Virus record (IMG/VR): IMGVR_UViG_3300025117_000050 | Span: 1 to 64,000 of that record | Direction: 5' to 3' (one strand) | DNA length: 64,000 nucleotides | Origin: a virus | In this document: positions 30,632-49,533 of the stretch, in pieces | Position numbering within the stretch: position 1 is the stretch's first letter | Layout: each line of letters opens with the position of its first letter | Program-made: the position numbers and the translations under genes | Notes under the pieces: model-generated | Told to the model about the DNA's origin: nothing | Database searches by the model: none | The model's input: only the letters and a program-made list of their open reading frames with translations

Positions 30632-30661
30632 TTGACAGAATGATAAAATAAATGTTACAAT
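30632..30661 (+). promoter_or_regulatory. sigma-A promoter, near-identical to 17926-17955
   Basis: TTGACAGAATGATAAAATAAATGTTA shared; -10 is TACAAT. Confidence 0.75.
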
Positions 30662-30765
30662 GTAAACATGAGAACGGGATTGAAACTTATGTAAAATATA
30701 TAAGGTAAAACATTAGAATACTACAATAATAATAAAAAAATAATATAAAAAAGGAGATCGTAAAC

Positions 30766-32826
30766 ATGAATATGAAAAATGATATGTCTTTTGGAGAATT
30801 TAAGGTTTTATTTCAGAAGAATTTTAAGGAGTTAGTAAAAGATGCTACACATTTGTTTGAAATTGAATTAGACAAAGATGTTATGTGGGAAGATAAATAT
30901 CTCAATAGTTTTTTACCAAAAGATAATCCAATTTATAGACAACGTAGAGAATATGATTGCTCATATTGTAGGAATTTTATAAGAAATATTGGTAATGTAG
31001 TTGTAATCAAAAATAATCAAATTAAGACCATTTGGGATTTTGAAACTGGTGATAAAATTTTTCAACCAGTAGTAAATGCTTTAGATGAATTTGTTAAATC
31101 TCATGTTGTTTCAGATGTTTGGATTAGTAAACTTAAAAAGATTGGAACAGATAAAAACTTTGAACAATTAGAAAATGGAAAAGTAACTGAATGGAAACAT
31201 TTTTATCTTGAATTACCGCAGAAATTTTATGATGTAACAAATAGATCGGAAGGTGAAATTAGAGGTAATTTTAGGAGTACAAGAGATGTATTCAAAGGCT
31301 CTTTAGATAAAATTACAGAAGATAGTTTGCTTACTGTATTAGAATTGATTTCTTCTAATTCATTATACAGAGGAAAGGAATGGGAGTCAGTATTAAATAA
31401 ATTTCTCAAGTATAAGAAAGAATATGATAAATTAGAAACAAATGAAGAAAAAGATAATTATACATGGGAACAATCTGTAAAAGTTGGAGATGTTGTTGGT
31501 AAAATCAAAAACCACTCAATGGGAACATTGCTTATTGATATTAGTGAAGGTATGAATTTAGATAAAGCAGTCAATAAATTTGAATTTATTGTTGGTGACG
31601 GTTATAAAAGGCCAAATCCTGTATATACAGAAAAAATGAGAAGAGATGCCAAAGAAAAAATTATTGAATTAGGATATATGGATTCATTAAGTAGAAGATT
31701 CGCAACACTTGAGGATATTACTATTAATAATATTTTATTTTCTAATAAAGATTCTGCTAAGAAAATGGGTGTAGATGTATTTGATGAAATGTTAAAAGAA
31801 ATTTCTATTAATCCTAAGAAATTCTCTAAAGTCGCAGAAGTTACAATTGATGATTTTATTGTAAATGTACTACCTACAGTAAGAGAAATTGAAGTATTTT
31901 TAGAGAATAAACATAATAGTAATATGGTATCATTAATTGCACCTGAGATTAAGGATAGTAAAACAATGTTTAAATGGGATAATGGATTTTCTTGGGCATA
32001 TAGTGGTAATATTACTGATTCTTCTATGAAAGAAAGAGTTAAATCTGCTGGTGGTAATGTTGATGGTATATTGAGATTTAGTATTCAATGGAATGATAAT
32101 AAATTTGACGGAAATGATTTAGATGCACATTGCTATGAACCAGATGGCAATGAAATTTATTACAGCAATAAAAAGAATTATCGTACTACTGGTGAATTAG
32201 ATATTGATATTATACATCCAGAAAAAGGTAAACCTGCTGTTGAAAATATAACTTGGACAGATAGAAATAAAATGCAAGAAGGTACTTATAGATTTTTTGT
32301 TCATAATTTTTTTCATAGAGGTGGGAAGGAAGGATTTAGTGCAGAAGTAGAAATTGATGGACAAATTTTTACTTTTGAATACAATAAAGAATTAAGACAA
32401 AGTGAAAAAGTACAAGTAGCAGAAGTTACATTTAGTAAAGTTAATGGATTTAGTATTAAAGAAAAATTACCTTCTAATGTATCTAGTAAAGAAGTATGGG
32501 GATTGAAAACTAATCAATTTGTGCCTGTGAGTGTTGTGATGTTATCCCCGAATTACTGGAATTTGCATCAAGGTTGTGGGAATTTACACTATATGTTCAT
32601 GTTAAAGAATTGCACTAATTTAGAATCACCTTCGGCTTTTTACAATGAGTTTTTGAATCAAGAATTAAATCAACATAGAAAGGTAATGGAAGCCCTTGGT
32701 TCTAAAATGGCAGTAAAAGATAGTGAAAAACAGCTTAGTGGACTAGGGTTTTCTTCAACTAAAAGAAATGAATTATTAGTGAAAGTTAAATCTCAGACAG
32801 AGAGAATGTTAAAAATTAAATTTTAA
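30766..32826 (+). CDS. large phage protein (686 aa) with a YfaP/DUF2135-like region
   Basis: N-terminal DCSYCRNF; DLDAHC.EP.GNEIY..GELDID..VENITW. Confidence 0.55.
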   Translation: MNMKNDMSFGEFKVLFQKNFKELVKDATHLFEIELDKDVMWEDKYLNSFLPKDNPIYRQRREYDCSYCRNFIRNIGNVVVIKNNQIKTIWDFETGDKIFQPVVNALDEFVKSHVVSDVWISKLKKIGTDKNFEQLENGKVTEWKHFYLELPQKFYDVTNRSEGEIRGNFRSTRDVFKGSLDKITEDSLLTVLELISSNSLYRGKEWESVLNKFLKYKKEYDKLETNEEKDNYTWEQSVKVGDVVGKIKNHSMGTLLIDISEGMNLDKAVNKFEFIVGDGYKRPNPVYTEKMRRDAKEKIIELGYMDSLSRRFATLEDITINNILFSNKDSAKKMGVDVFDEMLKEISINPKKFSKVAEVTIDDFIVNVLPTVREIEVFLENKHNSNMVSLIAPEIKDSKTMFKWDNGFSWAYSGNITDSSMKERVKSAGGNVDGILRFSIQWNDNKFDGNDLDAHCYEPDGNEIYYSNKKNYRTTGELDIDIIHPEKGKPAVENITWTDRNKMQEGTYRFFVHNFFHRGGKEGFSAEVEIDGQIFTFEYNKELRQSEKVQVAEVTFSKVNGFSIKEKLPSNVSSKEVWGLKTNQFVPVSVVMLSPNYWNLHQGCGNLHYMFMLKNCTNLESPSAFYNEFLNQELNQHRKVMEALGSKMAVKDSEKQLSGLGFSSTKRNELLVKVKSQTERMLKIKF

Positions 32827-32862
32827 ATAAAATATAAAAATAAAAAGGAGAAGTGATTTATT

Positions 32863-33255
32863 ATGACAATGCAAAACGTAAATATGTTTGAGGTAGCAAC
32901 TAGAAATCAGTTTAGGTTTGCTTTTAAGGGTATGCTTAATGTTGAGGATTTGTGGCAATTATCACCTAGAGATTTAGATGCTATCTTCAAATCTCTTAAT
33001 TCTGAATTAAAGAAAGTAAAAGAAGAAAGCCTACTTGAAATAAAATCAGCAGAAGATCAGATTCTTGATGTAAAGATTAATATTGTAAAACATATTTTTA
33101 ATGTTAAACAAGAAGAAGAGAACCAAAGATTGAAAGCAAAAGAAAATAAAGAGAAGAAGCAGAAATTGATGGAAATTTTAGCGAATAAGGAAGATCAAGA
33201 TTTACTAGATAAATCAGCAGAAGACATTCAAAAAATGATTGATGAATTGAATTAA
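32863..33255 (+). CDS. phage coiled-coil protein
   Basis: ORF co-transcribed with the 686-aa gene; G.L.VEDLW.L motif. Confidence 0.6.
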   Translation: MTMQNVNMFEVATRNQFRFAFKGMLNVEDLWQLSPRDLDAIFKSLNSELKKVKEESLLEIKSAEDQILDVKINIVKHIFNVKQEEENQRLKAKENKEKKQKLMEILANKEDQDLLDKSAEDIQKMIDELN

Positions 33256-33263
33256 GTTTTAAA

Positions 33264-33296
33264 TTTAGGGAGTGATTGTTTTAATTGCTCCCTAAA
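33264..33296. terminator. hairpin terminator
   Basis: TTTAGGGAG...CTCCCTAAA. Confidence 0.55.
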
Positions 33297-36293
33297 AATA
33301 CATAAATAAATTATAAATAAAATACACAATAAAAGGAGAATTAACTATATGAATTTAACAAAAGAAGATAAATTATTAATATTAAAGGCATTTGAAGTCA
33401 AAGACTATGAATGTGGTTTAGAAGAAAGAGAAAAGAAAATAATGTTGGATATTGCTAAAGAATTAAATATAAAAAGATGCGGATACAATGAAGATACACA
33501 GTACGTAGAATGTCCTGTTGAAGATTTTGATTGTGAAAAATGCAAATATTATGTGGAATATTTTATATCTACAGATAGAGAAATATAAATAATGAGATGA
33601 ATTTATTATGAAAACTAATATTATGAAAGTTAATTATATGCATACTGATAAATCTCCTGACTGATATATTTGGAATGCATTTTGTGATGAGTGTGGTAAA
33701 CAATTTAGAAATCATAAAATTTATAGTAGCAGTAAACCAGACAAAAGTGAAAAGGATTATTGTTTAGATTGTATGAGGGAAATGATTGATAATAAAATTA
33801 ATAATAAAGGAGCAGAAAATACATATGAAAAATATTGATAAAATAAGATTGAAACTACAAGAAGATTTAGATGATAAAATTAAACATATATTAGAAAATG
33901 AATGTCCGTTTCATTATGATTTAAAAGGTTTTGAAGATGATAATGATGAAAGATGTTATGAAAATAATAAAGATAAAGAAAGTTGTAAAAAATGTTGGGA
34001 TTTAGAAGACATAGAAGAATAAAAAAATGTAAGTCGTTAGCAAACAAATCTTTGCTCGTGATTCCAGTAGTAAATATTAGGAGAAATATATGCAGACTAA
34101 AAAACTCAATTCATTAATTAAAAGATTAGATTACAAAAATTTAAGTAAGAAAAAGAAAAGAAAATGTTTGCAAGAGATTAATATAATAGAACAAAAAGAA
34201 TCTAACAAAGAAAGAAAATTAAAAATGGAAAATAAAAATCTATGGGACATTGAAGATATTATAAAACAATTAGCATTAGATGAATATGATAAAATAGGTT
34301 TATTTGAAACAAGTAAATATCTAAAAATATCTCAAGATAAAGTATTAGAATGTTTTATTTATTTATCAGAAAGAGATTATCCTAAACTTAATATTAAAAT
34401 TTTAATTACTTGTCCAATACATAGAGAAGTATTATATTCTTATGATTTAAACAAAGGATTAAATCAAATACAGCCTCAATACTATTGTCATTATTGCGAA
34501 GATATTATAGATGTAAATGCTGAATATGTATATCTACAATTTTTAATTGATAAAAATTATTTAAAATTTGCTAAAGAATGTAGAAGAAAAAGGAAATTAG
34601 AAAAGGCAAAAGAGTTAGCAAAATATATTAATCGGAAAACTGAAGAAGCAGGATTAACTTATGAAGAGATTCAAGAAGATGTGTATAGAGCATGGTTAGA
34701 GATTAGAAAAGAAAAAGAAGAAAATAAATAATTAATAGGAGGATGAAATTATATGAAAAAGTTTTATTTAGATGATGGTTGTTTCTATTGTAATAAAGAA
34801 GTTGATAGTACACTACATGAAACACATACCGAAGTAAGAACTTTAACAAAGTATGATGTAGAATTTGGGAGAATACAAAAACCTAGTATTATAAATAGAC
34901 TTAAGGATAATTATCTTTATTTAGTTTGTTCTTGTGGAGAAATTGAGGACATTTCAGGTGAATTTATGATTAAAGATGATCATATTATGAAAAGAAAAAG
35001 AAGGTGAATAATTTATGAAATCTATTACATTTATTAGTGCAGTATTTGACTATGATAATAAACATAATATGGAATGTTTAGGCATATTAGATGAAAATAA
35101 TGATGAAATTATAGGAACAATTTATTTTGATAATAATTTTGGAAATGAAGAATTTCTTAAAAATTATGCAATTGTTAAAATAGAAAGAAAAGATAAAGGA
35201 GAGAAATAAATTGATTTCTATTGATAAAACAAGGCAACTCAAAGAATTAGGATTAGTATGGAATCCTCAATGTGGTGATTGGTATAAAATAGATTATTGG
35301 CCTACACCTATTTTATTAACTATAGATATATCAAGATTAGATGATAAAGAAATTGAATGTGTAATAGAAAATGTTAAGAATAATACTTGGTTGCCTAGAT
35401 TAGATCAAATGTTAGATGAAATTAAAAAATATAATTGGACTTATGCATTATATAGTGAAAATAAAATAGAAATTGAAATTGAAACACGTATCGAGTATGT
35501 ATCAATAATTGATAGGCATAGAAATTTTAAAGGCAATATAATAGAGAATGTAATTGCAGATGCTTTGATTTATATATTAGGAAAAGAGAAGGAGAAAATA
35601 TGATTATACGTGAATTAGACGAACAAGAATGTATTAATGATTTTGGATATAAATATATTATGCTAGATGAATTAATTAAAGATAATATTTTATATATGTA
35701 TGATTTAATTGATAAATGTGATGAGTGTGGTCTTTGTTGGATGAATGAAGAAGAAATTGATTGGTATATAGAAAAGACAAGAAAATTTTAAATTATAACT
35801 AAAGTTTAGTTTGGTGATAATATTAAGGAGATTTTTATTATGAGAGACAAAATAAGATTTCATTTTAGTTCAGGTTGTTATTTTGATAATTTTATGAAAG
35901 ATTTTATAGAAAAAATAAAAAATAGTATTAATAAAAAAGATATATTATTTGAGTATAAAAATATTTTAGTATATAAATCAAGCAATACAGAGGTATCTAT
36001 TTCTAATACAGGTTTTGATGTATATTTTTTGGAAATTGAAGAAATAAATATTCAAGAAAATACTAATATATTACTGCAAGAACATAAAAAATTAAAAGAC
36101 TTATATGAACATTATCCAAAAATATATGAATTTACAATATTCACAAATCAAAATTATTGTGACAAGATAAGAAAACAATTAATAAAATTAAAAGCTGATT
36201 TTACTGAAAATAATTTTAAATCTTTTGATGAAATGACATATACTTTTCACGTATATACTAAAATAAAATTTTTTGAGTAAGGAGGAAAATATT

Positions 36294-36707
36294 ATGGAAA
36301 ATGAAAATGAAATTATCCAATATTTTATAGTTAATTCAGAAATTAAAATATCAGCACCTAAGTTATCAGTACAGATAGGACATGTAGCAACTATAATTAC
36401 ACATGATATTATAAAAAGAATGTATCAACCAATAAGTGAAAATGAAGAATATATTAATCCTAATATATTGATTAATATTAATGATTGGTTAGAATGGTAT
36501 AACGATGGCAAAAATCAAAAGAAGATTATACTTAGAGGTAAAGAGAAACAATTATTAAAATTGATTGATCAGGGATTTTATTATATTAGAGATAATGGGT
36601 GTAATGAGTTAGAAAAAGGGACACTTACAACGGTAGGTCTGCCACCTATGAAAAGAAGCGAAGCACAAAAATATATAAAAAAATTACAATTATATAAAGG
36701 AGATTAA
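36294..36707 (+). CDS. peptidyl-tRNA hydrolase PTH2 family
   Basis: KLSVQIGH, KKIILRG and IRDNG.NEL..GTLT.VGLPP; SD AAGGAGG before ATG 36294. Confidence 0.85.
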   Translation: MENENEIIQYFIVNSEIKISAPKLSVQIGHVATIITHDIIKRMYQPISENEEYINPNILININDWLEWYNDGKNQKKIILRGKEKQLLKLIDQGFYYIRDNGCNELEKGTLTTVGLPPMKRSEAQKYIKKLQLYKGD

Positions 36708-38951
36708 ATATATGTTAGTTGAATTCAAAGCATGTAAAGATTGCTTATGTATATCTTGTTATTGTGTATATGATTGTCCAAAAGTAAAAGGATTAGCATG
36801 TGTAGAATGTAGTGGCAATCCACCAAAATTAGCAGAAGAATGTAAATATTATGAGGAAGGTTCATAAGTATAAATTAAATATAATCAGAAGGAGAAAATA
36901 AAATATAAATTGAGATATATTAAATTAAAATGTGAACAATATGATTGCAAAGCAGAATTTTTAATAGAATTAAATGATTGGTATAATAAAGAATATGAAG
37001 AAATAGTTCAAGATTTTTATATCTGTCCTATTTGTAATTCTTTAGTTCATTCAAATAAAGAAGATTGTATTATTGAAATTAAATCATTATAAAACAGAAT
37101 CTATTTAAAAAAATATAAATTAGCCGAAAGGAGTAATTATATATGGATAGACTGACAAAAAGAACACCAAAAGGAATTGCATACATGGCTATCGCAGACA
37201 CATTACCTAAAATAGAGCAAGAAATAGAAGGTTCAAAACCGATACTTGAAGAATTGTATGCAATGTTTCAAAAATTAGCAGATTATGAGGATAGAGACAC
37301 TTCACAAAAACCAAGAGAGCATTATAATTGGGGTGATTTCTCAGATAAAGAAGAATATTCACATTGGTTTTGTGGTAAATGTGGTTGGGAATTGGATGAA
37401 GATAAAAACTTCTGTAGTGAATGTGGACAAAGGATTGATTGGAGTTATACAAATAAAATTTAACAAAAAGTTCATTTGGTTTTAATTTTAAATAAAAAGG
37501 AGAGAAATAATATGGCGGATAAATCAATTTTCAAATGTCCTAAATGTGGTAAAAAATTTATTAGAGATTTGCATTATAATACAATAGTTGGTATGCAAAA
37601 TCTTATAAGTATTTCTTCTGATGGAGATGGAATTGAAGATATGTGTATGTGTTGTGGTTATATCGTTGTAAACAAAGATGTGGAGGATAAATAATAAATG
37701 AAAATGAATCCATTTAAGTTATATATGATTATGATAGGTTGTTTTATGATGGGTGTTTCCACTGGTATATCAATAGGAATAATTATCAAATAGGACTTTC
37801 ATCACGATTTTAGAAAGGAGTAAATTTTATGAATAATAATATTACTAAAGATATTAAATATCTAATTTTTAAACTTAATTGCGCAGAAGAAGACCAAAAC
37901 TGGAGTTTGGTTATAGATGTAAGGGTGGAATTGGAAATGTTGATTGATAAAATTAATAAAGGAGAAGGAGAATAATAATGTTAAAAATTAAATATTATTG
38001 TGGACTAAGTTTAGATTTAAATCAAGAAAAAGAATGTGAGAGTCAAGGGATAATAGAATTGGATGACGATGATATTGAAGAGTATCATGAAGGATTTTAT
38101 AGTATGGTATGTCCTTCATGTAAAAGAGAATTATATCAGTCAGAGGATCATTTTGAATTTATTGATGGAATGGAAGGAGAATAACCATGACAACTAAATT
38201 GTTATTAGAATTTACATTTGTAATATTCTTATTGCAAGTATATAAAACTAAATCATACTTCACACCATTAAAAATTAAGCAAGAAAAATTTGATAGTAAT
38301 AGAGAAAATGTAGAAAAGTTTATAAATAAGAAAATATTAAATAAGATATTTATAATATTATCAATGTTATATGGCTCAATATATTTTACCTTCTACATAA
38401 TTGGAATAGAATTATTTAAAGAGACAAATTTAGTAGTATTTCCTATATTGATGATTGGATTGTTAACATATGATATTGTTAAAACTTTGTTAGAATTTAA
38501 AAGTGGTATGTTGTGGAATAGTATAATAGATAAATTAGAACATCCAATGACTACAGCATACTTGTTATATTTTGTTTATTATGTTTTGAGATAGGATTAT
38601 AATTAGAAAAAGGAGATAAAAATATGAAACGATTTAAATGCAAAGTAGAAAGAGTAAATGAATACATAATTGAGTTTGATGAAAATATATTAAATGAGGA
38701 ATGGATGGAATACTTTAGAAGTGTATTTTTTAATTATCATGAATTGGATGAACATGCTGAACATATAGCACAAATGAGAGCGAGATTTAAAAAAAGTTTT
38801 ATTGAAGGTTATGGTGTGCCGTTGATTGATGGTAAAGTATCATATTTTGCTAATGAAAAGAGTGTTAATAAAGCAATTAATATTATTATTGTAAGTGAAG
38901 ATGAAGATTATGAAGTAGATGTAGAAGAGATTATTTAAAGGAGATTAAATT

Positions 38952-39587: not shown

Positions 39588-40037
39588 GTGATTTTAATGA
39601 TTATTAAAACTCAAACTGCTAATGCTGTTAATGCTCAATGTTATAGGAAAGAGGAAGAGGTTGATTGGAGGTCGTGGTGTCCTAAACGTGGAGAGATTTA
39701 TTTGTGTCAGTTAGGAAATGAAGGTTTATTATATTCAGAAATTAAGGGTTATCGTCCAGTTTTAATAGCATCAAATGATATAGCGAACAGGCATAGCCCA
39801 GTAGTTACTATAATTCCATTAACTTCCAGTCAAATAAAAAATAACTTACCTGTTCATGTTAAAGTAGGGGTAGAAGAAGGGTTGCGAAATTTGAGTTTAA
39901 TTTGTTGCGAGCAGACTAAAACTGTGTCAAAAAATAGAATGTTTATAAACGGTAGTTTAGTTAAAATATGCAAATTAAGTAATGAATTAATGTGTAAAGT
40001 GGACAACGCATTAAAAATACAATTCGGATTAGTTTAA
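39588..40037 (+). CDS. mazF: MazF/PemK (NdoA-like) endoribonuclease, orphan
   Basis: KRGEIY..L..SE..GYRPVLI.SND..N..SP.V..IPLTS...LP.HV...EQ..TVSK.R...KVDNALKIQFGL; catalytic Arg and Thr present. Confidence 0.92.
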   Translation: MILMIIKTQTANAVNAQCYRKEEEVDWRSWCPKRGEIYLCQLGNEGLLYSEIKGYRPVLIASNDIANRHSPVVTIIPLTSSQIKNNLPVHVKVGVEEGLRNLSLICCEQTKTVSKNRMFINGSLVKICKLSNELMCKVDNALKIQFGLV

Positions 40038-40184: not shown

Positions 40185-41543
40185 TTGTTAGTTAAAAATC
40201 AAAAAGTTAAAGTTAAATGGAATGGAGCACATAGAAAATATTATGAAGAAAAAGGTTATCCATTTACTAATTATGGTGATGAATTAGAGATAGACATAAA
40301 AGATTTAGCACCAAAAAGTCAAAAATATGTTTTAGTTAGTTGTGATTATTGCGGTATACCATTTATGAGGAGGTATTGTAATTACAATACAAGAAAAGAA
40401 AAATACGGTAAAGATGATAAAGATTGTTGTGATGATTGCAGAGTACATAAAAGAGAAGAAACATGTTTAGATAAATATGGTTTTAAAAATGCTGTTCAAG
40501 TAGAAGAAATACAAAATAAAATAAAAGAAACTATTAAGGAAAAATATGGAGTAGAATATATATCTCAAGTAGAAGAAATTAAAAATAAAAAGAAACAAAC
40601 TTGTTTAGATAGATATGGAGTAGAATATACCTTGCAAGTTCCAGAGATTAGAGAAATGATTATAGAAACTAATATAAATAAATATGGAGTTGAAAATCCA
40701 TTTCAAAATGAAGAAATTAAAGAAAAAATCAGACAAGTCAATATGGATAAATATGGTGTAGAATATCCAATGCAATTACCTGAAATAAGAGAAAAAAGTC
40801 AAGAAACAACTTTTAAAAATCTTGGTGTTAAATATGCTATGCAATCTTATAAAACACAAGAAAAAAATAAACAATCTATTCAAGATAAATACGGATATAC
40901 AAATATTTTTCAGATACCAGAGATAAAAGAAAAAATAAAGAAAATTAATATTAAAAAATATGGAGCGGAAAATCCTTTAAATAATAAAGAAATTAGAGAA
41001 AAAGCTAATAAAACTATAAAAGATAAATATGGTGTTGATAATGTTTCACAGAATCCAGAAATACAAGCAAAAATTAGACGTTCATTTTATAAAAATGGTA
41101 CTACTCCTACTTCAATTCAACAAAGATATATTTGTTTTTTAGTAAACGGTAAATTAAATTTTCCTATTGGAAGAACAAATGCAGATATATTGATAAATAA
41201 TAATATAATTATTGAATATGATGGTGGTGGACATAATCTAAGTGTAAAAATAGGAAATATAACGCAAGATCAATTTAATAGAAAAGAAATTAAAAAATAT
41301 TATTTTTTAAAAAGTAAAGGATATAAGATTATTAGAATTGTATCTGCTAAAGATAATTTACCTAAAGAAGAGAAAAGATTAATTGATGCTATAAATATAG
41401 CAATTGATTATTTAAATCAAAATCATTCTTGGTTTGAAATAAATATTGATGATGGAAAATTAAGATGTATTTGTTATGAAAAAGATTATAATTTTGGAGA
41501 ATTAAGAAGAGGAACAAAAGAAAATTTAGCTATAAATACATAA
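40185..41543 (+). CDS. putative homing endonuclease: Zn-ribbon, ~23-aa KYGV repeats and a PD-(D/E)xK/DUF559-like C-terminus
   Basis: About nine KYGVE.P.Q..EI..K repeats; ADILI...IEYDGGGH. Confidence 0.7.
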   Translation: MLVKNQKVKVKWNGAHRKYYEEKGYPFTNYGDELEIDIKDLAPKSQKYVLVSCDYCGIPFMRRYCNYNTRKEKYGKDDKDCCDDCRVHKREETCLDKYGFKNAVQVEEIQNKIKETIKEKYGVEYISQVEEIKNKKKQTCLDRYGVEYTLQVPEIREMIIETNINKYGVENPFQNEEIKEKIRQVNMDKYGVEYPMQLPEIREKSQETTFKNLGVKYAMQSYKTQEKNKQSIQDKYGYTNIFQIPEIKEKIKKINIKKYGAENPLNNKEIREKANKTIKDKYGVDNVSQNPEIQAKIRRSFYKNGTTPTSIQQRYICFLVNGKLNFPIGRTNADILINNNIIIEYDGGGHNLSVKIGNITQDQFNRKEIKKYYFLKSKGYKIIRIVSAKDNLPKEEKRLIDAINIAIDYLNQNHSWFEINIDDGKLRCICYEKDYNFGELRRGTKENLAINT

Positions 41544-41582: not shown

Positions 41583-42176
41583 TTGATTGAATTTATTATA
41601 GGAGCATTTTTATATGCTAAATTTAAAAAAGGTTATAAGTTAAAATACATATTTAAATACCCATACATATTTGCGATAATACCACCTTTATTATGTGTTT
41701 TACTATACATATATTTAGAATATTGTGTTTTTAATCAGCAATATTGGTTTTTCCCTTATCAACATATAATAAAGACTACAACGCTTATAAGTTATGTTCC
41801 GTTGATTTATATATATAATTTATATTATAATGATATATATGAAAATGATACATTAAAATCATTTTTAACATCTCCTGCTAGTAAAACTACATTTTGTTTA
41901 GGATTAGGCTCATTTTTAAACTATATGGCAATTATCTCTAACAATATGAAAATGCCAGTATTTCCCAGTAATTGTTATTGGACTGGTTATATTAAACCTG
42001 AATTCATTAATGATGGTTTACATGTGCTAGGTGATGCTTATACTAAAGCAATCCCCTTATGCGATTGGATCGATTTTGGAATATATGTAGCTAGTCCAGG
42101 TGATATATTAATAAGATCATTTGCATTTTTAATTATTTATCATTCTATAAAAAATTCTAATAAAATGATAAAATAA
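41583..42176 (+). CDS. DUF5317-family membrane protein
   Basis: G.FLN...I.SN..KMPV...H.....TK...L.D.I.....SPGDILI. Confidence 0.75.
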   Translation: MIEFIIGAFLYAKFKKGYKLKYIFKYPYIFAIIPPLLCVLLYIYLEYCVFNQQYWFFPYQHIIKTTTLISYVPLIYIYNLYYNDIYENDTLKSFLTSPASKTTFCLGLGSFLNYMAIISNNMKMPVFPSNCYWTGYIKPEFINDGLHVLGDAYTKAIPLCDWIDFGIYVASPGDILIRSFAFLIIYHSIKNSNKMIK

Positions 42177-42208
42177 TTGTTGACACATAATTAACTCTGT
42201 GGTAATAT
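42164..42208 (+). promoter_or_regulatory. sigma-A promoter of the receptor-agrD operon, with the 18-bp element
   Basis: AATGATAAAATAATTGTT, then TTGACA(42180)-17-TAATAT(42203). Confidence 0.7.
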
Positions 42209-42244
42209 ATAAATAGAAAAAGTTGCTAAGGAGTTGATAGAGAA

Positions 42245-43039
42245 ATGATACATGATATTACAAATGCTTTGTTAAATTTTTTACTTGTAAGTGTTTTGGA
42301 GGAGTTTGTATGGTTGTTAATAACCATAATATTATTAAAAAGATTTGATTTGCTTGATAGATATAGATGGAAAGAGAGTATGCGAGAATTTTTAATACCT
42401 ATCTTACCAACTGCACTTTATATCAATTTATCTAGATATGTTTTACATATGCCTAGAATAATAATATTATTTGGATGTATATTTATATTTTATGGTTTGA
42501 CATTATATATAATAAAGAAAAATTCATTTATAGATGAAAAATTACCATATTTAAAAATATTAATGTTTGTATTTATAGGTATTCTTATTATAGGAATAAC
42601 AGAATTGATTTATATGCCAATAATTTTATATATTATACAACAACCAGTAACAATAATGAATCAAAATATTTTAATGAATTTTGCATTTTCAATACCATCT
42701 AGAATATTTCAAATATTATTAATTCTTGCATTAATTTATAAATATAATGAAATTAAATTATTCAGCAATATAATAAAAGATAAAGTATTATTAATTATTA
42801 CAGTGTTGTTTTTAAGTATTATATTGCTAATAGTATTTATTACAACAAAAATTATTCATAGTTATTGTTTAATTTTAAACTTTTCTTTATATTCACAAAT
42901 ATTAATTGGAATTAGCATAACAACAATTATAACATTAATAATATTTTTTTATCTTATTCCAATTAATTATTTAATAAATAAAATGTTTTTACTTAACAAA
43001 TCACATCAAAATATGTTTGATGATGATTATATAGATTAA
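42245..43039 (+). CDS. polytopic membrane protein, putative AIP receptor (AgrC-sensor-like, no kinase domain)
   Basis: About 7 hydrophobic segments, only a ~20-aa C-terminal tail, no H-box or GHKL motifs; directly upstream of agrD. Confidence 0.6.
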   Translation: MIHDITNALLNFLLVSVLEEFVWLLITIILLKRFDLLDRYRWKESMREFLIPILPTALYINLSRYVLHMPRIIILFGCIFIFYGLTLYIIKKNSFIDEKLPYLKILMFVFIGILIIGITELIYMPIILYIIQQPVTIMNQNILMNFAFSIPSRIFQILLILALIYKYNEIKLFSNIIKDKVLLIITVLFLSIILLIVFITTKIIHSYCLILNFSLYSQILIGISITTIITLIIFFYLIPINYLINKMFLLNKSHQNMFDDDYID

Positions 43040-43060
43040 AATAGAAAGGAGGGAAATTTC

Positions 43061-43180
43061 ATGAAAAAGTTTGCAATTATTACTTCTTTAATTGGTATTA
43101 TCGGCATTATCTGTGCAAATTGTATTAATTCTGCTTGGACATTTAACCAACCGAAAGCACCATCTATGTTAGTTAAGTAA
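43061..43180 (+). CDS. agrD: AgrD-type cyclic lactone autoinducer peptide precursor (39 aa, not in ORF track)
   Basis: SD AAGGAGG; MKKFAIITSLIGIIGIICANCINSAWTFNQPKAPSMLVK = hydrophobic leader, S-A-W-T-F core, NQPKAP follower typical of clostridial AgrD. Confidence 0.88.
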   Translation: MKKFAIITSLIGIIGIICANCINSAWTFNQPKAPSMLVK

Positions 43181-43197
43181 TTTATAACTACATAGAA

Positions 43198-43237
43198 TAT
43201 TTATAGTAGAGGATGATTGTTTTCTCTACTATAAATA
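43198..43237. terminator. hairpin terminator after agrD
   Basis: TATTTATAGTAGAG / CTCTACTATAAATA. Confidence 0.7.
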
Positions 43238-43257
43238 CAAAAAATAAATATAAATAC

Positions 43258-43286
43258 TTGTATTCTGGAGGATAGTATGGTAAAAT
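43258..43286 (+). promoter_or_regulatory. sigma-A promoter for the HTH-mazF / ORF / agrB unit
   Basis: TTGTAT-17-TAAAAT with extended TG. Confidence 0.6.
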
Positions 43287-43332
43287 AATAGATGTAATAT
43301 ATATAAAATATTAAATTGAGGAGTGATTAATA

Positions 43333-44229
43333 ATGTCAATATTATTTGGTAAGAAGAATGTATTAAAACCTACTTCTACAAATTCTATTTCTGAAATAAC
43401 AAAGAAAGAGTTAGCTTACAATATAAGAGTTGCCGTAGGTCATCGAAGTATTACTCAAGTCTGTAATATATTAAAAATGGTCGATCCAAAACCATTAGTT
43501 GACTTAATAAAAATGAATTATAATGAATTACCTGATAGACAATTACTTAGAAAAATTGCATCTGCAAGCGAAGGTAGGGTTTCTTATCAAAACCTTTATT
43601 CTGTCTGCGGTTATTCCGAATTTGATTCTGAAGAAGATCGTAGTTGGGCAAAGTGGGTTCCTGAACGTGGTAGTTGTTATATGATTGATTTAGGATGGAA
43701 TATGGATAGTGAGCAAAATTCTGTGCGTCCGGCAATAGTGATGCAAAACAACAAAGGCAATCAATACTCAGGAACAACCGTTATTATCCCTATATCTTCT
43801 CGTTCTAAAAAATTTTCTTCACAGATTCATGTATTATTAGAAAAAGAATTAGGATTTTTACGGGAATGTCAATGTTTTCCAGAACAAATTCGCTGTGTTT
43901 CAAAAAGGAGGTTCTTCTATAATTCTGTACCTTATAAAATCACTACTTTACCAGAACATAAATTATTAGAAATCAAAAACGCACTTGAGTTTGAACTAGG
44001 TTTTGAGCCTTTATATTTTGACGAAGAAAAAATATTTAAATTAATTTCTCATATTCGTTCTTTAGAAAATAATATTAAAATCAAAAAATCACATAATCTA
44101 ATTGATATATTAAATCAAAAAATGGATGATCTAAAAGAATACTGTTCAAAATATCATAAGAATCACAAGATTATCTTACAAGAATACGATAGAATCAACA
44201 ATTGCGGTTACAATGCAGTATCCATATAA
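43333..44229 (+). CDS. XRE-like HTH-MazF/PemK fusion with C-terminal helical extension
   Basis: N-terminal ELA..IR.AVG.RSI......P....LRKIA.AS...VSY..L...CGY; middle ERGSCY.IDL....SEQ..VRPAIV.QN..GN.YS....IPISS..IHV...EQIR.VSK.R. Confidence 0.85.
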   Translation: MSILFGKKNVLKPTSTNSISEITKKELAYNIRVAVGHRSITQVCNILKMVDPKPLVDLIKMNYNELPDRQLLRKIASASEGRVSYQNLYSVCGYSEFDSEEDRSWAKWVPERGSCYMIDLGWNMDSEQNSVRPAIVMQNNKGNQYSGTTVIIPISSRSKKFSSQIHVLLEKELGFLRECQCFPEQIRCVSKRRFFYNSVPYKITTLPEHKLLEIKNALEFELGFEPLYFDEEKIFKLISHIRSLENNIKIKKSHNLIDILNQKMDDLKEYCSKYHKNHKIILQEYDRINNCGYNAVSI

Positions 44230-44291
44230 AACAACAAATCCAACCAAAATAAACAAATAAAACTAAAACAAAAAAAAGGAGATCAATTAAA

Positions 44292-44633
44292 ATGATAATC
44301 TTTGATGAAAAACAATTAAAATACTTATTTAATAAATACAAAATAAGATATAAAATATTTGAAGAAACAAATATTCTACTTATAGATAGTGGTCTTGATG
44401 AGTGGTTAATCAAGTATCAACATGGAAGAGATCAACCATATTGCCTTATGCACAAAAATAAATTAAAACAAACTAAAAGGTTCCATGTGCAGAGATGGTT
44501 GTCAAATTTTTATCAATCACTTGATAGTCTATTGTCACATAAAAATATTTTTGTAGATCATTCAAGTTCAAAAAATACATATAAAAAATATAGAAATAAT
44601 AAAATAAATAATAAAAGGAGAAAAAGTTGTTAA
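44292..44633 (+). CDS. hypothetical protein overlapping the agrB start
   Basis: SD AAGGAG; overlaps the agrB start by 7 nt. Confidence 0.6.
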   Translation: MIIFDEKQLKYLFNKYKIRYKIFEETNILLIDSGLDEWLIKYQHGRDQPYCLMHKNKLKQTKRFHVQRWLSNFYQSLDSLLSHKNIFVDHSSSKNTYKKYRNNKINNKRRKSC

Positions 44634-45421
44634 AATATATAAAAAACTACATAATAACATTTCGTTATATCAAACTATTCTCATATTGGAATGCAAGATA
44701 TTTGCATAACAAACTAAAAGAAGAAAGAATTAGAGAATCACAAAACTTACATAATCCACATAAAGAAAAACATAAATATTATTATATATTGCAAATGATA
44801 ATTAAAAAATTATTTCAAATAATTAATAAAATAATTTCTTTAACTCCATTAGGAAGAAAACTATCATCGTACATAACTGAAAAATATTCACAATATAAAC
44901 AGAAAGAGAAAAAACCTAAAAAAATATACAACAGATACACCTACTATTATGGTCTTCAAATAATCATCGGAGGCATAAATAAATTCCTTCTACTAATCAT
45001 ACCAGGCTTACTATTTAACATCTTGCCGCAACTATTACTAACCACGTTATCATTTGTATCACTAAGAATATGGACTGGTGGTCTGCACTACAATTCTTAT
45101 ACCAAATGCAGCTACATATCACTATTATCCTTCACACTCACAGCACTACTATCAAAATACATCATATTAAATCAATTTATCACTATGTCAATATTTCTAT
45201 CTGTATTTATATTAATTTTAATCTATGCCCCTGTAGAACATCCAAACAGACCAATAAAAGAAAAAGAAAAAATTAAATACAAATTAATCGCATTATTTGT
45301 ATTAAGCACCTTAACTATTATCTATATGTTTACAAATAATGTTATTATCTGTAATTCTATTATATATGGGATATTATTAGCAGGTATAATTATGTTACCA
45401 ATTATAAATAAACTAAGATAA
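44627..45421 (+). CDS. agrB: AgrB accessory gene regulator B (peptide-processing membrane protease)
   Basis: LRIWTGGLH...YTKC (catalytic His/Cys) and IYAPVEHPNRP motifs. Confidence 0.93.
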   Translation: MLKYIKNYIITFRYIKLFSYWNARYLHNKLKEERIRESQNLHNPHKEKHKYYYILQMIIKKLFQIINKIISLTPLGRKLSSYITEKYSQYKQKEKKPKKIYNRYTYYYGLQIIIGGINKFLLLIIPGLLFNILPQLLLTTLSFVSLRIWTGGLHYNSYTKCSYISLLSFTLTALLSKYIILNQFITMSIFLSVFILILIYAPVEHPNRPIKEKEKIKYKLIALFVLSTLTIIYMFTNNVIICNSIIYGILLAGIIMLPIINKLR

Positions 45422-45552
45422 TTATTAACATAATTTCGTAAATGGTCGATAAATGTCGGTAGGTGCGTATTGTTAATATGCTAAATATTATATAGAATAA
45501 TAGTATTAAAACATATTAATCACAAATTAAATTAAAATATGAATTTAGGCTA

Positions 45553-45606
45553 TTGTTTTTTTATTATTAAGGTATTATAATAGAACAAATATACAAACAA
45601 ATGTTC
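45553..45606 (+). promoter_or_regulatory. sigma-A promoter with a downstream LexA-box-like site
   Basis: TTGTTT-17-TATAAT(45576); AAAC-AAAT-GTTC at 45595-45606. Confidence 0.45.
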
Positions 45607-45861
45607 TACAAACAAATAGAGGAGGAGATTGTTACGAATAAAACAGTTTACACAATAAAAGATGAAAATGACAAATATGTACATGGTAATAGTATTAAAA
45701 AAATTAATGAAAAGTATTATTATTCCCCATATTCATGTTTAGAAGATGGTTGTATTGCTTATACTAATAAAATAAGAGTAGAGGAAGCATTGACTACTCT
45801 TAAATTACATAATCAACTAGGTGGGCTAGGTCACAAATTTATTATTACGCTTGTTTCATAA
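45601..45861 (+). CDS. small hypothetical protein; true start probably just after the GAGGAGG at ~45619-45625
   Basis: ORF track plus internal SD. Confidence 0.5.
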   Translation: MFYKQIEEEIVTNKTVYTIKDENDKYVHGNSIKKINEKYYYSPYSCLEDGCIAYTNKIRVEEALTTLKLHNQLGGLGHKFIITLVS

Positions 45862-45883: not shown

Positions 45884-45912
45884 TTGACATAGCATACTAA
45901 TACATATATAAT
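45884..45912 (+). promoter_or_regulatory. consensus sigma-A promoter of the repressor operon
   Basis: TTGACA-17-TATAAT. Confidence 0.85.
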
Positions 45913-45959
45913 AATCATTAATGAGATATTATATATAAATAAAAAAGAGGTGAGTAACT

Positions 45960-47336
45960 ATGCTTAATATTAAAAATGCTATGTTGATAAAAGAATTAAA
46001 ACCACTAATAATTAAATATGGAAACAATTCAAAAATTTATAATCTTGTTCACGAATCCTTTATTAAAAAGGGTTTAACGGGTAGTAATGCAAAAAATCTA
46101 TTTACAGGTAAACTACCATTAGAATCTTTAGATATCACTTGTCAAAAAGAATTATATTTATTATTTTCTTTTACTGATAGCATGAGAAAAGCATTAAATT
46201 CATTTGATGAAATGTCTAAAGATACTTTTGGTTCAGAAGAAGAGTACTCAAAATTAAAACTAGAAAATTATTTTACTCCTATGGAAATTGAAGAGTTTAC
46301 GGATTTCGTGATAGAGAAAGAAGAAATAAGTAGATATCCTTACAGATTAAAAAACATGTTAAAAGTTGGGGAAAATCACTATATAGGCATTATATCTGCT
46401 AGAGAATTATCTTGGATAGATGCCTCCAATGACATTGTTTATGATTTCGCTGTACAGCGTGATCCCAAAATTGATATATTTGGCATGAAACGTATTAATA
46501 CTGATTTAAAGAAAATAGATGAAATGACAGAGAAGTTACTTTCTGGCAATTACTTTTCAGATGAAATTAAGTTAAATGTTAAGAATGATGGTGAAGATCA
46601 TATCGAATTCGATTCAAAAGACGGAATTTATGGTGATCTTATTATTCATTCAGGAACAATAACTTGTTTTGACGGTTATCACAGAAAAGCAGCCAATTCA
46701 AAAGTTATGAATATTAATAATGAATTGCAATTTAATTGGAAACTAGGTGTTACTAACTATCCAGAACCTAAAGCAAAAAAATTCATGATTCAAATTAACA
46801 AACAAAAACCTATTAAGATTGAACACATCAGAAATATTGATGAAACAAGAAATGAAAATGTAATTGTCAATAATATTATCAATAATTCTAATTCCGAACT
46901 TGCTGATAAGATTAAAGATTCTGATGCAGAATTAAAACATGGTGGATTAACTAAAAAATCTATATTATCTTTAGCAATAGAAGAACAATATAAGGAATTT
47001 TTAGTTACTAAAATCAATAATATTGAAATATCTAATTGGATAGTAGAATTCACAAATCATTTAATGGGATTATATACTAACGAATTTTTATTTAATGTAG
47101 ACAAAACTAAAAAAATAAGTTATATTAATCATAAGAATATGTTTATGGGATATATCGCACTTTCAAGAAAATTGTATAAGCAAGATGATTGGAAAAATAA
47201 AACTAAAAAAATAATGGAAAGCGTTGATTTTAGCATTGATAATGATATTTGGAAAAGTATTAAAATCAATGAAGATAATTTAAATAAAACATCAAAGAAT
47301 GAATTATATAATATATTTATTAAAAAGCAGGTGTAA
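45960..47336 (+). CDS. YopQ/SroE-like DndB/ParB-fold protein
   Basis: 458 aa; VQR and CFDGYHR (DGQHR-type) motifs, FMIQINKQKP; adjacent to a YopR-like gene as in SPbeta. Confidence 0.7.
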   Translation: MLNIKNAMLIKELKPLIIKYGNNSKIYNLVHESFIKKGLTGSNAKNLFTGKLPLESLDITCQKELYLLFSFTDSMRKALNSFDEMSKDTFGSEEEYSKLKLENYFTPMEIEEFTDFVIEKEEISRYPYRLKNMLKVGENHYIGIISARELSWIDASNDIVYDFAVQRDPKIDIFGMKRINTDLKKIDEMTEKLLSGNYFSDEIKLNVKNDGEDHIEFDSKDGIYGDLIIHSGTITCFDGYHRKAANSKVMNINNELQFNWKLGVTNYPEPKAKKFMIQINKQKPIKIEHIRNIDETRNENVIVNNIINNSNSELADKIKDSDAELKHGGLTKKSILSLAIEEQYKEFLVTKINNIEISNWIVEFTNHLMGLYTNEFLFNVDKTKKISYINHKNMFMGYIALSRKLYKQDDWKNKTKKIMESVDFSIDNDIWKSIKINEDNLNKTSKNELYNIFIKKQV

Positions 47337-47341
47337 AATAA

Positions 47342-48412
47342 ATGGTAAAACATAGAAACGGGAGAAAAAATTTAGCAGAAAGAGTGTTTAAGCATGATAG
47401 AGATGTTAAAGAAGAATTCTTAAAATCATTGAAACCCTCAACTGCTAATACTGTAAGAAGTATACTTTTTAAGGTAGATGAATATGAAGAATTAATTGGG
47501 AAAAGTATATATGATTTTAATTTAGATGATCGTGATGATTTTATTATATCTATGTTCCCTAATAAAAGTAAAGGTGTTATTAATACAACTAGATCATATC
47601 TGGTAGGATATATTAATTATTGTATTGACAATAACCTTGTTAGACATATGGAAAATAGATTTAGTTTAATCTCTAAAGATGATATAGATAATTATGTCAA
47701 TGATATGGCTATGCAAATGAAGTACCTGTCGAAGGAAGAAATTAAAGAAGCACAAAGTAAATTGGTTAATAATTGTGATAAATTAATTTTGCAATTAGTT
47801 CCTTTATCAGCCAGAGGTCGCACCGAAAAGGATAATACTAATGAAGAATTAATAAATTTAAGAGTGCAAGATGCTGTAGAATCTTACGAAAAAGGCAATC
47901 TAAAACTTTGGAATAATGATGGAGATTTTAGGTATATAAAAATTGATGATGAAACAATAGAATTATTAAAGAAAACTATAAATGATGATAAATATATCAT
48001 TAATAATGGAAGTGAATATAGTCGTAAAAGACATGATAAAAAACTTGGCAGAGGCATGGGAGAAAAAAGTTTCCCTTTAAATGATACTGGCTATGTTTTT
48101 AGAACTGCTGGCAAGAATAAAAGGGGTAAAGTTAAATCCAATTATTTTAATTCTAAAATTAATATAATAAAAGATTGGGTGGAGAATCCATTTATTAACA
48201 TAACTAATTTACACGCATCAGGTATGATTGATTATGTCATCCAATTAGAAAATGAAAAAGGAGAAGAATTAGATAATAACGACTATATAGATGTTTGTGA
48301 AAAATATTTATTTGGTAAACCTAGAATTTTGCCCAATGGTGAAAATGATTGGAGTATGTCAATATCAAAATTAAAGACAATGGTAAAAGATTATATTAAT
48401 ATTAAATCATAA
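47342..48412 (+). CDS. MrpR/YopR (SroF)-like tyrosine-recombinase-fold master repressor
   Basis: E..IGKSIYDF core-binding N-domain; DKLIL.L....EELINL and NL.ASGMI motifs; canonical HxxR not evident. Confidence 0.72.
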   Translation: MVKHRNGRKNLAERVFKHDRDVKEEFLKSLKPSTANTVRSILFKVDEYEELIGKSIYDFNLDDRDDFIISMFPNKSKGVINTTRSYLVGYINYCIDNNLVRHMENRFSLISKDDIDNYVNDMAMQMKYLSKEEIKEAQSKLVNNCDKLILQLVPLSARGRTEKDNTNEELINLRVQDAVESYEKGNLKLWNNDGDFRYIKIDDETIELLKKTINDDKYIINNGSEYSRKRHDKKLGRGMGEKSFPLNDTGYVFRTAGKNKRGKVKSNYFNSKINIIKDWVENPFINITNLHASGMIDYVIQLENEKGEELDNNDYIDVCEKYLFGKPRILPNGENDWSMSISKLKTMVKDYINIKS

Positions 48413-48424
48413 GGATGTGAAAAA

Positions 48425-49279
48425 ATGGCGAAAAATAGTATTAACTTATCTGACTATGAAGATATAGAAGTTTATAATATGGTTAGGTTTGGAATTATAG
48501 GTAGATTTCCTAATAATTTTTGGGGTGGATTAGATACTTATAAAACTGCAAAAGACCTGACTAGATATATGTTTGAAAATATTCTTGAATGGAGTATAGA
48601 AGATATTAAGCATAAGGTAACAGCAGATATTTTTTATGAAAATAAACTTGGTAATATGCTAAAAACACTTTTTGATAATAATTTATTAGATGCATTGCTT
48701 AACGCATACCCAGAATTAGCAGATTGGGTAGAAGAAAAAAAGAATAAAATTATTATCGAAAAAGAACCAAGAGAAAAATATACAGATGAAGAGTTAATAG
48801 AAAATTTACAGCAAAAATATAAGGAATTAAATAGAACACCTTATATAAGAGAAATGTCTGAACCAGAAGGAAATGTTTATATATCAAGATTTGGTAGTTG
48901 GAGTAATGCTTTAATTCTTGCTGAGTTAATTGAGGACATATGTGTAGATGTAGATAATTCAGAAGAAGCAATTAATAAAGCGCAAAGGGAAATTAAAGAT
49001 TTTGCGTATAAAGTAGAAAGATTACCAACTAAAAAAGAAGTAGATAATTTATTTTCTCCTGGAGAATTAATATCATATTTCGGTTCTTTAAAAGGACTTT
49101 ATGATTATTTAAGTGAAGGTTATACAGAAGAAGAATTAATAAATATATTAATTGATAAAAGAAATAAATTAGGGAGAAATCCAATAAATAAGGATATAAA
49201 ATTCCCAAGACCAATTATCTTTATTGATAAATTCAATAGTTGGGAGAATGCCTTAAAAGAAGCAAGATTAGATGAATAA
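48425..49279 (+). CDS. DUF4046-like domain plus homing-endonuclease-associated repeats (putative DNA-binding protein)
   Basis: RFPNNFW..RYMFE.ILEW..NAYP; repeats YT.EELI..L......L.R.P....F.SW.NAL..A. Confidence 0.65.
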   Translation: MAKNSINLSDYEDIEVYNMVRFGIIGRFPNNFWGGLDTYKTAKDLTRYMFENILEWSIEDIKHKVTADIFYENKLGNMLKTLFDNNLLDALLNAYPELADWVEEKKNKIIIEKEPREKYTDEELIENLQQKYKELNRTPYIREMSEPEGNVYISRFGSWSNALILAELIEDICVDVDNSEEAINKAQREIKDFAYKVERLPTKKEVDNLFSPGELISYFGSLKGLYDYLSEGYTEEELINILIDKRNKLGRNPINKDIKFPRPIIFIDKFNSWENALKEARLDE

Positions 49280-49300
49280 TTTAATCTTGCTTCTTTTATT
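49258..49300. terminator. terminator closing the repressor operon (possibly bidirectional)
   Basis: AGAAGCAAGATTA / TAATCTTGCTTCT followed by a T-run. Confidence 0.7.
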
Positions 49301-49533
49301 TATGTCAAACCCTTAATCCATTTTTCAGCAGCTAAACAGCATCCTTCAAAACTATTGAATTTAATATCTTCATTCAAAGAAATATAAATAATATCGTTAT
49401 CACGATCTATCTGAAAGTGATAGTAATATGTATCAGGCATATAATAAATATACGCTTTACATCCTTTTGCTCATCTTGCTATGCTGACCCACGTAGGGTA
49501 TACTTTACGCTTTAATATTCTTTTAAATTTCAT
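49300..49533 (-). pseudogene. minus-strand ORF with an in-frame TGA at codon 21
   Basis: SD AAGGAAG; MKFKRILKRKVYPTWVSIAR*AKGCKAY...KWIKGLT. Confidence 0.5.

Follow-up and report, generated by a model that had tools for sequence, protein, structure and literature searches.

Avoidance of the MazF hexamer UACAUA in the repressor operon of an SPbeta-like phage and its relatives

The repressor operon and its surroundings

The first 64,000 nucleotides of the virus record IMGVR_UViG_3300025117_000050 (the window; the whole contig has 96.7 kb, 25% G+C, and nearly all its genes on the + strand) include a three-gene operon that resembles the repressor genes of the phages SPbeta and phi3T and, upstream of it, two genes encoding homologs of MazF (Table 1). 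A sequence-only reading of this region had proposed that the operon encodes the repressor and that both it and the mazF genes lack the pentamer UACAU, as would befit a lysogeny program immune to MazF. Here, we show that the operon, in the window and in its relatives, is devoid of the hexamer UACAUA (TACATA in DNA) on its sense strand, and we discuss which processes could have produced this pattern.

Several lines of evidence identify the operon. Its first gene gave tblastn matches to yopQ of SPbeta (E values of 1e-14 and 5e-19), to phi3T_96 (1e-21), and to the Geobacillus phage E3 (2e-25). The second gene, which starts 6 nt after the end of the first, matches yopR of SPbeta (1e-9 and 4e-14), and precomputed assignments to PF22822 and PF22823 are found for the cluster of its protein and for 17 homologs. 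Both the order of these genes and their placement on the + strand are those of SPbeta and phi3T, whose sroA-F / yopM-R regions share this homologous core of yopQ/SroE followed by yopR/SroF on the same strand. The MrpR_N_CB domain, the matches to yopQ, yopR, and phi3T_96, and the shared gene order bear out the earlier assignment and support the view that the three genes form a repressor module of the yopQ/yopR type (SroE/SroF, MrpR-type), with a predicted role in repression. The third gene is of a family that also closes the operon in eight relatives. The spacer of the operon promoter includes a TACATA (45901-45906), which lies upstream of the predicted transcription start, and the same arrangement is found in L003 and L004, the two closest relatives of the window among the loci described below.

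The surroundings of the operon differ from those of phi3T and SPbeta. When the proteins of these two phages were searched against the contig, which is possibly incomplete, using tblastn with E values up to 0.01, only yopQ and yopR gave matches, and no homologs of AimR, AimX, YopM/N/O, or YopP/SroD were detected. The region upstream of the operon contains instead an AgrB-containing module, and this Agr-like module and the MazF genes sit where SPbeta has arbitrium. The system of phi3T and SPbeta involves AimX, YosL, and the MazEF of the host, whereas this clade bears its own MazF homologs, one of them a fusion, with no recognizable adjoining MazE. The host also differs, being here presumably a Bacillota organism of groundwater, and a further difference is the low G+C content of the contig given above. 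The public sequencing runs with DNA of the contig are metagenomes of groundwater, soil, and sediment.

Table 1. Features of the operon region and mazF genes (positions in the window)
Feature	Positions	Strand	Size	Evidence or remarks
Operon promoter	45884..45912	+		TTGACA (45884), 17-nt spacer, TATAAT (45912); 12/12 consensus match
yopQ / SroE-like gene, operon gene 1	45960..47336	+	458 aa	tblastn; phrog_5732, E 2e-62
yopR / SroF / MrpR-like master-repressor gene (predicted), tyrosine-recombinase-like	47342..48412	+	356 aa	Pfam MrpR_N_CB, E 4e-13; phrog_5830
Operon gene 3, DUF4046 and HNH_repeat domains	48425..49279	+	284 aa	Domain matches; function not assigned
Terminator-like hairpin	49254..49298	+	20-bp stem	Overlaps operon stop codon, then T-rich tail
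TACAT-free sense stretch	45902..49457	+	3557-nt gap	Between sites 45901 and 49458
Orphan MazF/PemK homolog	39588..40037	+	149 aa	Pfam PemK_toxin, E 5e-23
MazF fusion: N-terminal helical domain, MazF domain (residues about 110-225), helical tail	43333..44229	+	298 aa	Pfam PemK_toxin, E 3e-17

A hexamer missing from the sense strand of the operons

The sequence-only reading had reported, from a manual scan, that no TACAT occurs on the + strand of the three genes, and our computed scan agrees, having found no missed sites. The contig has 213 such sites on this strand (2.2 per kb), and the gap that includes the operon is the longest of the window and of the whole contig, with a runner-up of 2156 nt. 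Among the sliding windows drawn along the contig, only those overlapping the operon contain no TACAT. The stretch without TACATA extends further, to position 50003, and the first downstream TACATA is at 50004. Since the site at 45901 is within the 17 nt that separate the two perfect promoter boxes, ahead of the predicted start as had been stated, and the terminator-like hairpin closes the operon, the predicted transcript has no TACAT on its sense strand from its start to the hairpin.

The number of sites that should have been present depends on the null model. The density in the contig predicts 7.3-7.6 TACAT in the operon, contig-wide codon usage 4.1, a shuffle of synonymous codons within each gene 3.1-3.3 (joint P(0) = 0.014), and a third-order Markov model 2.2. 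Gene by gene, codon nulls predict 1.4-2.1 sites in the yopQ-like gene and 1.1-1.2 in the yopR-like gene, and both have none. With the proteins fixed, P is about 0.014-0.02 for the operon of the window. In the codon-shuffling test proposed with the sequence-only reading, the operon is modestly significant, and the two mazF genes, for which few sites are expected, are uninformative. The codon pairs agree with the scan: the Tyr-Ile pairs of the yopR-like gene use TAT in five of five cases, as had been noted, and those of the operon in ten of ten, whereas TAC is used in 38 of the 152 pairs elsewhere in the contig. Furthermore, an unbiased scan of the operon for 310 testable 5-mers puts TACAT first in depletion, and ACA, TACA, and TACATA top the lists of depleted 3-, 4-, and 6-mers. 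Taken alone, the window is therefore suggestive, and at this level of significance the depletion does not provide the independent support for the repressor assignment that had been claimed for it. Two further ideas were rejected. The stretches without TACATA at 28790-33299 and 34418-38394 might have been other immune units, yet their codon-null expectations are below 1. The low frequency of ACA and TACA in the operon raised the possibility of an ACA-type specificity, like that of Escherichia coli, but the data pooled over the relatives favor the full hexamer only.

The comparison across the family is decisive. An alignment of 15 homologs of the repressor led to 12 loci, one in a Bacillota metagenome-assembled genome (MAG) and 11 in viral contigs (19-181 kb, 25-31% G+C); a scan of viral contigs with a single protein returned no relatives. 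Two loci, L010 and L011, share 97% of their nucleotides and enter the counts as one, and the others have 64-83% nucleotide identity. All 12 include the pair of yopQ-like and yopR-like genes, and most have in addition two small genes and the DUF4046 gene, a family that has no TACATA in nine genes. The pooled operons contain 21 TACAT, to be compared with 46.5 expected when shuffling codons (z = -4.7, a 2.2-fold deficit), 62 given the codon usage of the flanks (z = -6.4), and about 89 given the density (p = 5e-21), whereas the flanking genes have 359 for 294 expected. When operons and flanks were contrasted for 813 5-mers, TACAT (-7.4) and ACATA (-7.3) gave the strongest signals, followed by a third at -5.3. 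The pentamer TACGT, which ranks third in this contrast, is low in the pooled operons of the window and L003 to L014 (3 versus 16.4 in codon shuffles; 44 versus 57.8 in the flanks), for which we offer no explanation.

These two leading pentamers overlap in a single hexamer, and it is the hexamer that is avoided. None of the 21 TACAT in the operons is followed by A, whereas 309 of the 521 outside them are (Fisher test, 1e-8). The 12 nonduplicate operons (45.5 kb) lack TACATA entirely, and their flanks (199.6 kb) have 279. By density, 52 occurrences would be expected in the operons (p = 1e-25, rank 1 of 1788 hexamers); against an expectation of 14.5, the minimum of 400 simulations was 6. Hexamers differing by one letter are close to expectation (TACAAA, 34 versus 38; TACAGA, 18 versus 16; GACATA, 15 versus 14), as is the reverse complement TATGTA (24 versus 28), and ACATA preceded by a letter other than T occurs 29 times. 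The choice of codons tells the same story. The pair Tyr-Ile is never encoded by TAC-ATA in the operons (0 of 105) and is so in 85 of 311 cases in the flanks (Fisher test, 9e-13), about four times the prediction of about 7% under independent codons. Similarly, the contexts of type x-Thr-Tyr use the hexamer in 0 of 39 cases in operons and 31 of 117 in flanks. Flanking genes are enriched in TACATA about two-fold (176 versus 92, z = +11), in all three reading frames, and the letters adjoining the hexamer show no conservation. Given this pattern at the level of strand, letter, and codon, we conclude that selection has disfavored the hexamer within the operon and favored it elsewhere, on the sense strand only. 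The freedom from MazF motifs is supported as a conserved, strand-specific, and motif-exact property of the whole operon family, and the avoided unit is UACAUA, the strict MazF/EndoA site, rather than the pentamer that had been put forward.

The same holds for cultured phages: TACATA is missing from the sroE and sroF genes of SPbeta, phi3T, Geobacillus E3, Psychrobacillus Perkons, and Mammaliicoccus phi6255 (5 of 5 phages). Taking sroDEF of the five phages together, there is one TACATA where density predicts 20, 22 TACAT are tolerated with only one followed by A, and contexts that could encode the hexamer use it in 1 of 38 cases, compared with 57 of 164 in the flanks. The likeness to the site-free repressors of phi3T and SPbeta, on which the sequence-only reading had drawn, thus stands for the hexamer and fails for the pentamer: in phi3T, sroE has five TACAT and sroF one, none of them part of a TACATA. 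Phages phi3T and SPbeta resemble this clade in having sroE and sroF without UACAUA amid UACAUA-rich genes, and their transcripts have been described as enriched in MazF sites (bioRxiv 10.1101/2023.04.27.537455). The MazF of Bacillus subtilis cleaves only U^ACAUA, and reporter assays showed UACAUA to be the main site of the MazF of Listeria and Staphylococcus aureus too (PMC11780869; bioRxiv 10.64898/2026.08.06.743204).

MazF homologs and the hexamer outside the operons

The orphan MazF has as nearest solved structures the EndoA of Bacillus and the MazF of S. aureus (E values about 6e-16), and it retains the equivalents of Arg25 and Thr48 of EndoA, whose catalytic roles are known (B. subtilis numbering; PMC8634880). 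The fusion matches MazF structures in the Protein Data Bank (PDB) at 1.5e-14, and its AlphaFold model, with a mean confidence (pLDDT) of 79, has a MazF domain with a template modeling (TM) score of 0.87-0.93 to the MazF of S. aureus and B. subtilis. Eleven homologs of the fusion all share the catalytic Arg, and in the fusion of the window the catalytic Thr is replaced by Ser. The best PDB matches of both proteins are EndoA/MazF enzymes of this kind, at 33-36% identity. The two proteins thus share with the EndoA/MazF of B. subtilis, Listeria monocytogenes, and S. aureus the PemK fold and a catalytic Arg plus Thr or Ser, and the hexamer cut by the latter is the one avoided in the operon. They differ in being phage-borne, in having no recognizable adjacent antitoxin gene, and, for one of them, in having additional N- and C-terminal domains. 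The N-terminal domain of the fusion, labeled HTH in the sequence-only reading, had no Pfam match at E values up to 5, and hits to the MazF domain prevailed when the model was compared with Foldseek, leaving the N-terminal domain unassigned. No MazE-type Pfam domain was found in the open reading frames neighboring the mazF genes, among which the small ones were not searched exhaustively. Weak matches to a PHROG family annotated as "antitoxin mazE-like" were found for residues 94-275 of the fusion (5e-7) and for the orphan (1.5e-4). Each of the relatives encodes one or more MazF homologs within 8 kb upstream of the operon, and with the window all 13 loci have MazF genes beside it. In the 1.9-Mb MAG G001, which holds L003 and whose binning and completeness are not established, the matches (C7:106904-107224 and C6:542810-543079) consist of the phage-borne fusion, the only MazF above the Pfam cutoff, and one sub-threshold PemK-like match. 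This host may be devoid of a canonical MazF.

A place of the mazF genes in an immune compartment is not supported. The computed scan agrees that neither mazF gene of the window has a TACAT. However, this absence is uninformative because only about 1.2 are expected in the two together (0.2-0.5 in the orphan, 0.8-0.9 in the fusion), and most mazF genes of the relatives do carry one TACATA, which speaks against the idea that they are site-free immune genes. In the relatives they have in fact more TACATA than expected (12 versus 3.1), both in the short genes (6 versus 1.3) and in the fusions (6 versus 1.8). The fusion genes of six relatives have a single TACATA each (L005:6173-6994, L006:498-1298, L010:3700-4470, L012:6049-6840, L014:4223-5023, and L003:6490-7380). 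In the first five, the hexamer overlaps the codons of a Thr/Ala-Thr-Tyr-Pro peptide common to their N-terminal domains; that of L003 overlaps a Thr-Tyr pair close by. The fusion gene of the window and that of its closest relative are without the site. These sites may be a self-targeting feedback.

Outside the operon, the contig has 116 TACATA on the sense strand and 65 on the other, although composition favors the reverse, and the hexamer is three times denser in noncoding DNA. Some occurrences have peculiar positions. In 13 of 158 genes, a TACATA begins 5-10 nt upstream of the ATG start codon and follows a ribosome-binding site of the GGAGG type (gene starts at 1886, 8093, 8989, 12890, 14496, 16580, 55666, 56107, 58792, 59392, and 63237 of the window, and at 73885 and 76713 of the contig). 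It is the second commonest hexamer at this position, despite a C content of 8.6% in the contig, and a cut there would detach the start codon from its ribosome-binding site. Nine of the 12 relatives have a TACATA 15-46 nt past the last stop codon of the operon (L003:12835, L004:11988, L005:12777, L007:12741, L008:12759, L009:7750, L012:12735, L013:12737, L014:12724). Judging by eye from the aligned sequences, these sites apparently lie directly 3' of a stem-loop, and a cut at them would leave an operon mRNA with a hairpin end; the window is without this site.

Genes close to the operon provide further examples. Those upstream of it in the window (41583-45861) are rich in the motif, with six TACAT in a DUF5317 gene, where 2.1-2.8 are expected, and five in agrB; family-wide, the DUF5317 genes have 27 for 17.7 expected. 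Genes sharing the N-terminal part of DUF7487 have no TACATA when placed directly upstream of the yopQ-like gene (L010:6218-7783, L014:6670-8463, L006:2493-4271) and two or three each when placed elsewhere (40185-41543 of the window, L004:2643-4226, L008:2210-3763, L012:14361-15857). Because genes sharing this domain differ by position, the site-free zone appears to track operon membership and not gene family.

Explanations for the pattern and their consequences

The explanation that we favor, with a probability of about 0.7, is that selection has purged UACAUA, the strict EndoA/MazF site of Bacillota, from the sense strand of the SPbeta-like repressor operon and has enriched it in most other phage genes, both in coding sequence and between the ribosome-binding site and the start codon. 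An active MazF specific for UACAUA would cut the majority of the phage mRNAs. The mRNA of the repressor operon would remain intact and still be translated, which could tilt the infection toward lysogeny or hold it there. We infer the role of MazF as selective agent, its cleavage of UACAUA, and its effect on lysis and lysogeny from this pattern, from its conservation, and from the one or two MazF homologs found beside the operon in every relative; the agent could be the phage-borne MazF or that of the host.

The absence of one 5-mer from 3.3 kb of a 97-kb AT-rich genome could coincide with the repressor operon by chance. If one considers the window only, this is not far-fetched: a random placement of the 213 sites of the contig produced a gap of at least 3557 nt in 7% of trials (post hoc P = 0.07), with fixed proteins the expectation is no more than 3.1-4.1 sites, and the TACATA-free run is only the second longest of the contig. 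Yet TACATA is missing from the operon in each of the 12 relatives and, for sroE and sroF, in the five cultured phages, the loci of the relatives are not near-identical copies save for the one pair, and a motif that had been named beforehand came first in unbiased k-mer scans. We give chance hardly any credence, and at the level of the family it is excluded. Very improbable too, in our view, is a signal acting on DNA, with TACATA being part of promoters, an operator of the repressor, or a target of restriction. The hexamer is indeed present between the promoter boxes of the operon in the window and in L003 and L004, it is denser in noncoding DNA, and the MrpR of SPbeta binds a repeated promoter element (PMC10516654). 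However, this operator is a 15-bp element present at about ten promoters, whereas the hexamer has no context beyond its six letters and is enriched in coding sequences in three frames. Moreover, the effect is specific to one strand, as shown by the near-normal counts of TATGTA in the operons and by the excess of sense over antisense TACATA in the contig.

General differences in codon usage or amino acid composition, without any RNase, might arise from host adaptation of the lysogeny genes or from a different origin of the operon. They do exist: operon genes are poorer than the flanks in ATA (0.30 versus 0.43), ACA (0.34 versus 0.48), and TAC (0.11 versus 0.17), ACA and TACA are low in the operon of the window, and the peptide contexts [Leu/Ile/Val]-His-[A..] are scarce in operons (7 versus 106 in flanks). 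Still, shuffling the operons' own codons leaves the 2.2-fold deficit, other hexamers made from the same codons are not equally depleted, changing a single letter brings the counts to about expectation, and the flanks are biased in the opposite direction for TACATA. General codon usage thus contributes to the pattern but cannot explain a letter-exact deficit with the opposite sign in the flanks, and we consider it quite improbable as the full cause. Finally, selection could act on RNA through another endoribonuclease, or through an RNA-binding protein, that reads UACAUA. In favor of this, the only MAG in which a relative is found has, besides the copy of the phage itself, no chromosomal MazF that passes the Pfam cutoff. 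Such an agent seems nonetheless unlikely, given that UACAUA is the defined site of the MazF of B. subtilis, Listeria, and S. aureus, that EndoA-type MazF genes lie beside the operon in all 13 loci, and that in phi3T the same operon is reportedly spared. On the last point, a 2025 preprint that cites earlier work states that MazF degrades most phi3T mRNAs and spares those of the operon including sroF (bioRxiv 10.1101/2025.11.27.690993).

Some observations weigh against the MazF explanation and call for caution. The signal of the window alone is modest, both with the proteins fixed and for the longest gap. The codon shift of the operons is broader than the hexamer, and part of the depletion may have other causes. 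The relatives are not fully independent, since six loci are 71-83% identical in addition to the near-duplicate pair. None of the public runs in which sequence of the contig was found is an RNA run. Lastly, a related MazF cleaves UACAAA instead (PMC8634880), so the specificity of the phage MazF cannot be read from its sequence.

The principle of a repressor operon spared by MazF is already published for phi3T and SPbeta. What is new is the hexamer-exact signal of selection in two directions, its conservation over distant SPbeta-like phages, and a clade without arbitrium that has its own MazF homologs beside the operon. Escape from, or sensitivity to, RNases by way of motif content is known elsewhere, as in the ACA-less mRNAs of E. 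coli and the UACAU-rich or UACAU-poor transcripts of S. aureus and Clostridioides difficile. The UACAUA-free 16S rRNA of MazF-encoding Bacillota is another case in which immunity or sensitivity depends on whether the sense strand lacks the motif or has it in excess (bioRxiv 10.64898/2026.08.06.743204). Unlike these motif-free escape RNAs, here a single mobile genome is split into an immune part, the repressor operon, and a sensitized part, both under selection. A more specific scenario, which we regard as tentative, is that this uncultured clade of large SPbeta-like phages uses one or more UACAUA-specific MazF of its own as a built-in effector of the lysis/lysogeny decision. Its genomes would be divided into a sensitive compartment, with sites selected into coding sequences and into the interval from ribosome-binding site to start codon, and an immune repressor cassette bounded by sites just outside it. 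The switch would depend neither on host toxin-antitoxin systems nor on arbitrium, and its probable driver would be the neighboring Agr-like peptide module.

If the MazF explanation is correct, the logic by which lytic messages are cut and the repressor operon is spared would not be peculiar to the arbitrium phages of B. subtilis. It would be a general and strongly selected design of SPbeta-like phages, including those of Bacillus, Geobacillus, Psychrobacillus, and Mammaliicoccus and an uncultured clade from groundwater with a MazF of its own. Its footprint in hexamer counts could then serve as a cheap sequence test for phage genes meant to survive MazF and as a computational read-out of RNase specificity in organisms that cannot be cultured. 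It also allows a direct experiment, in which UACAUA sites are added or removed by synonymous changes and lysogeny is measured.

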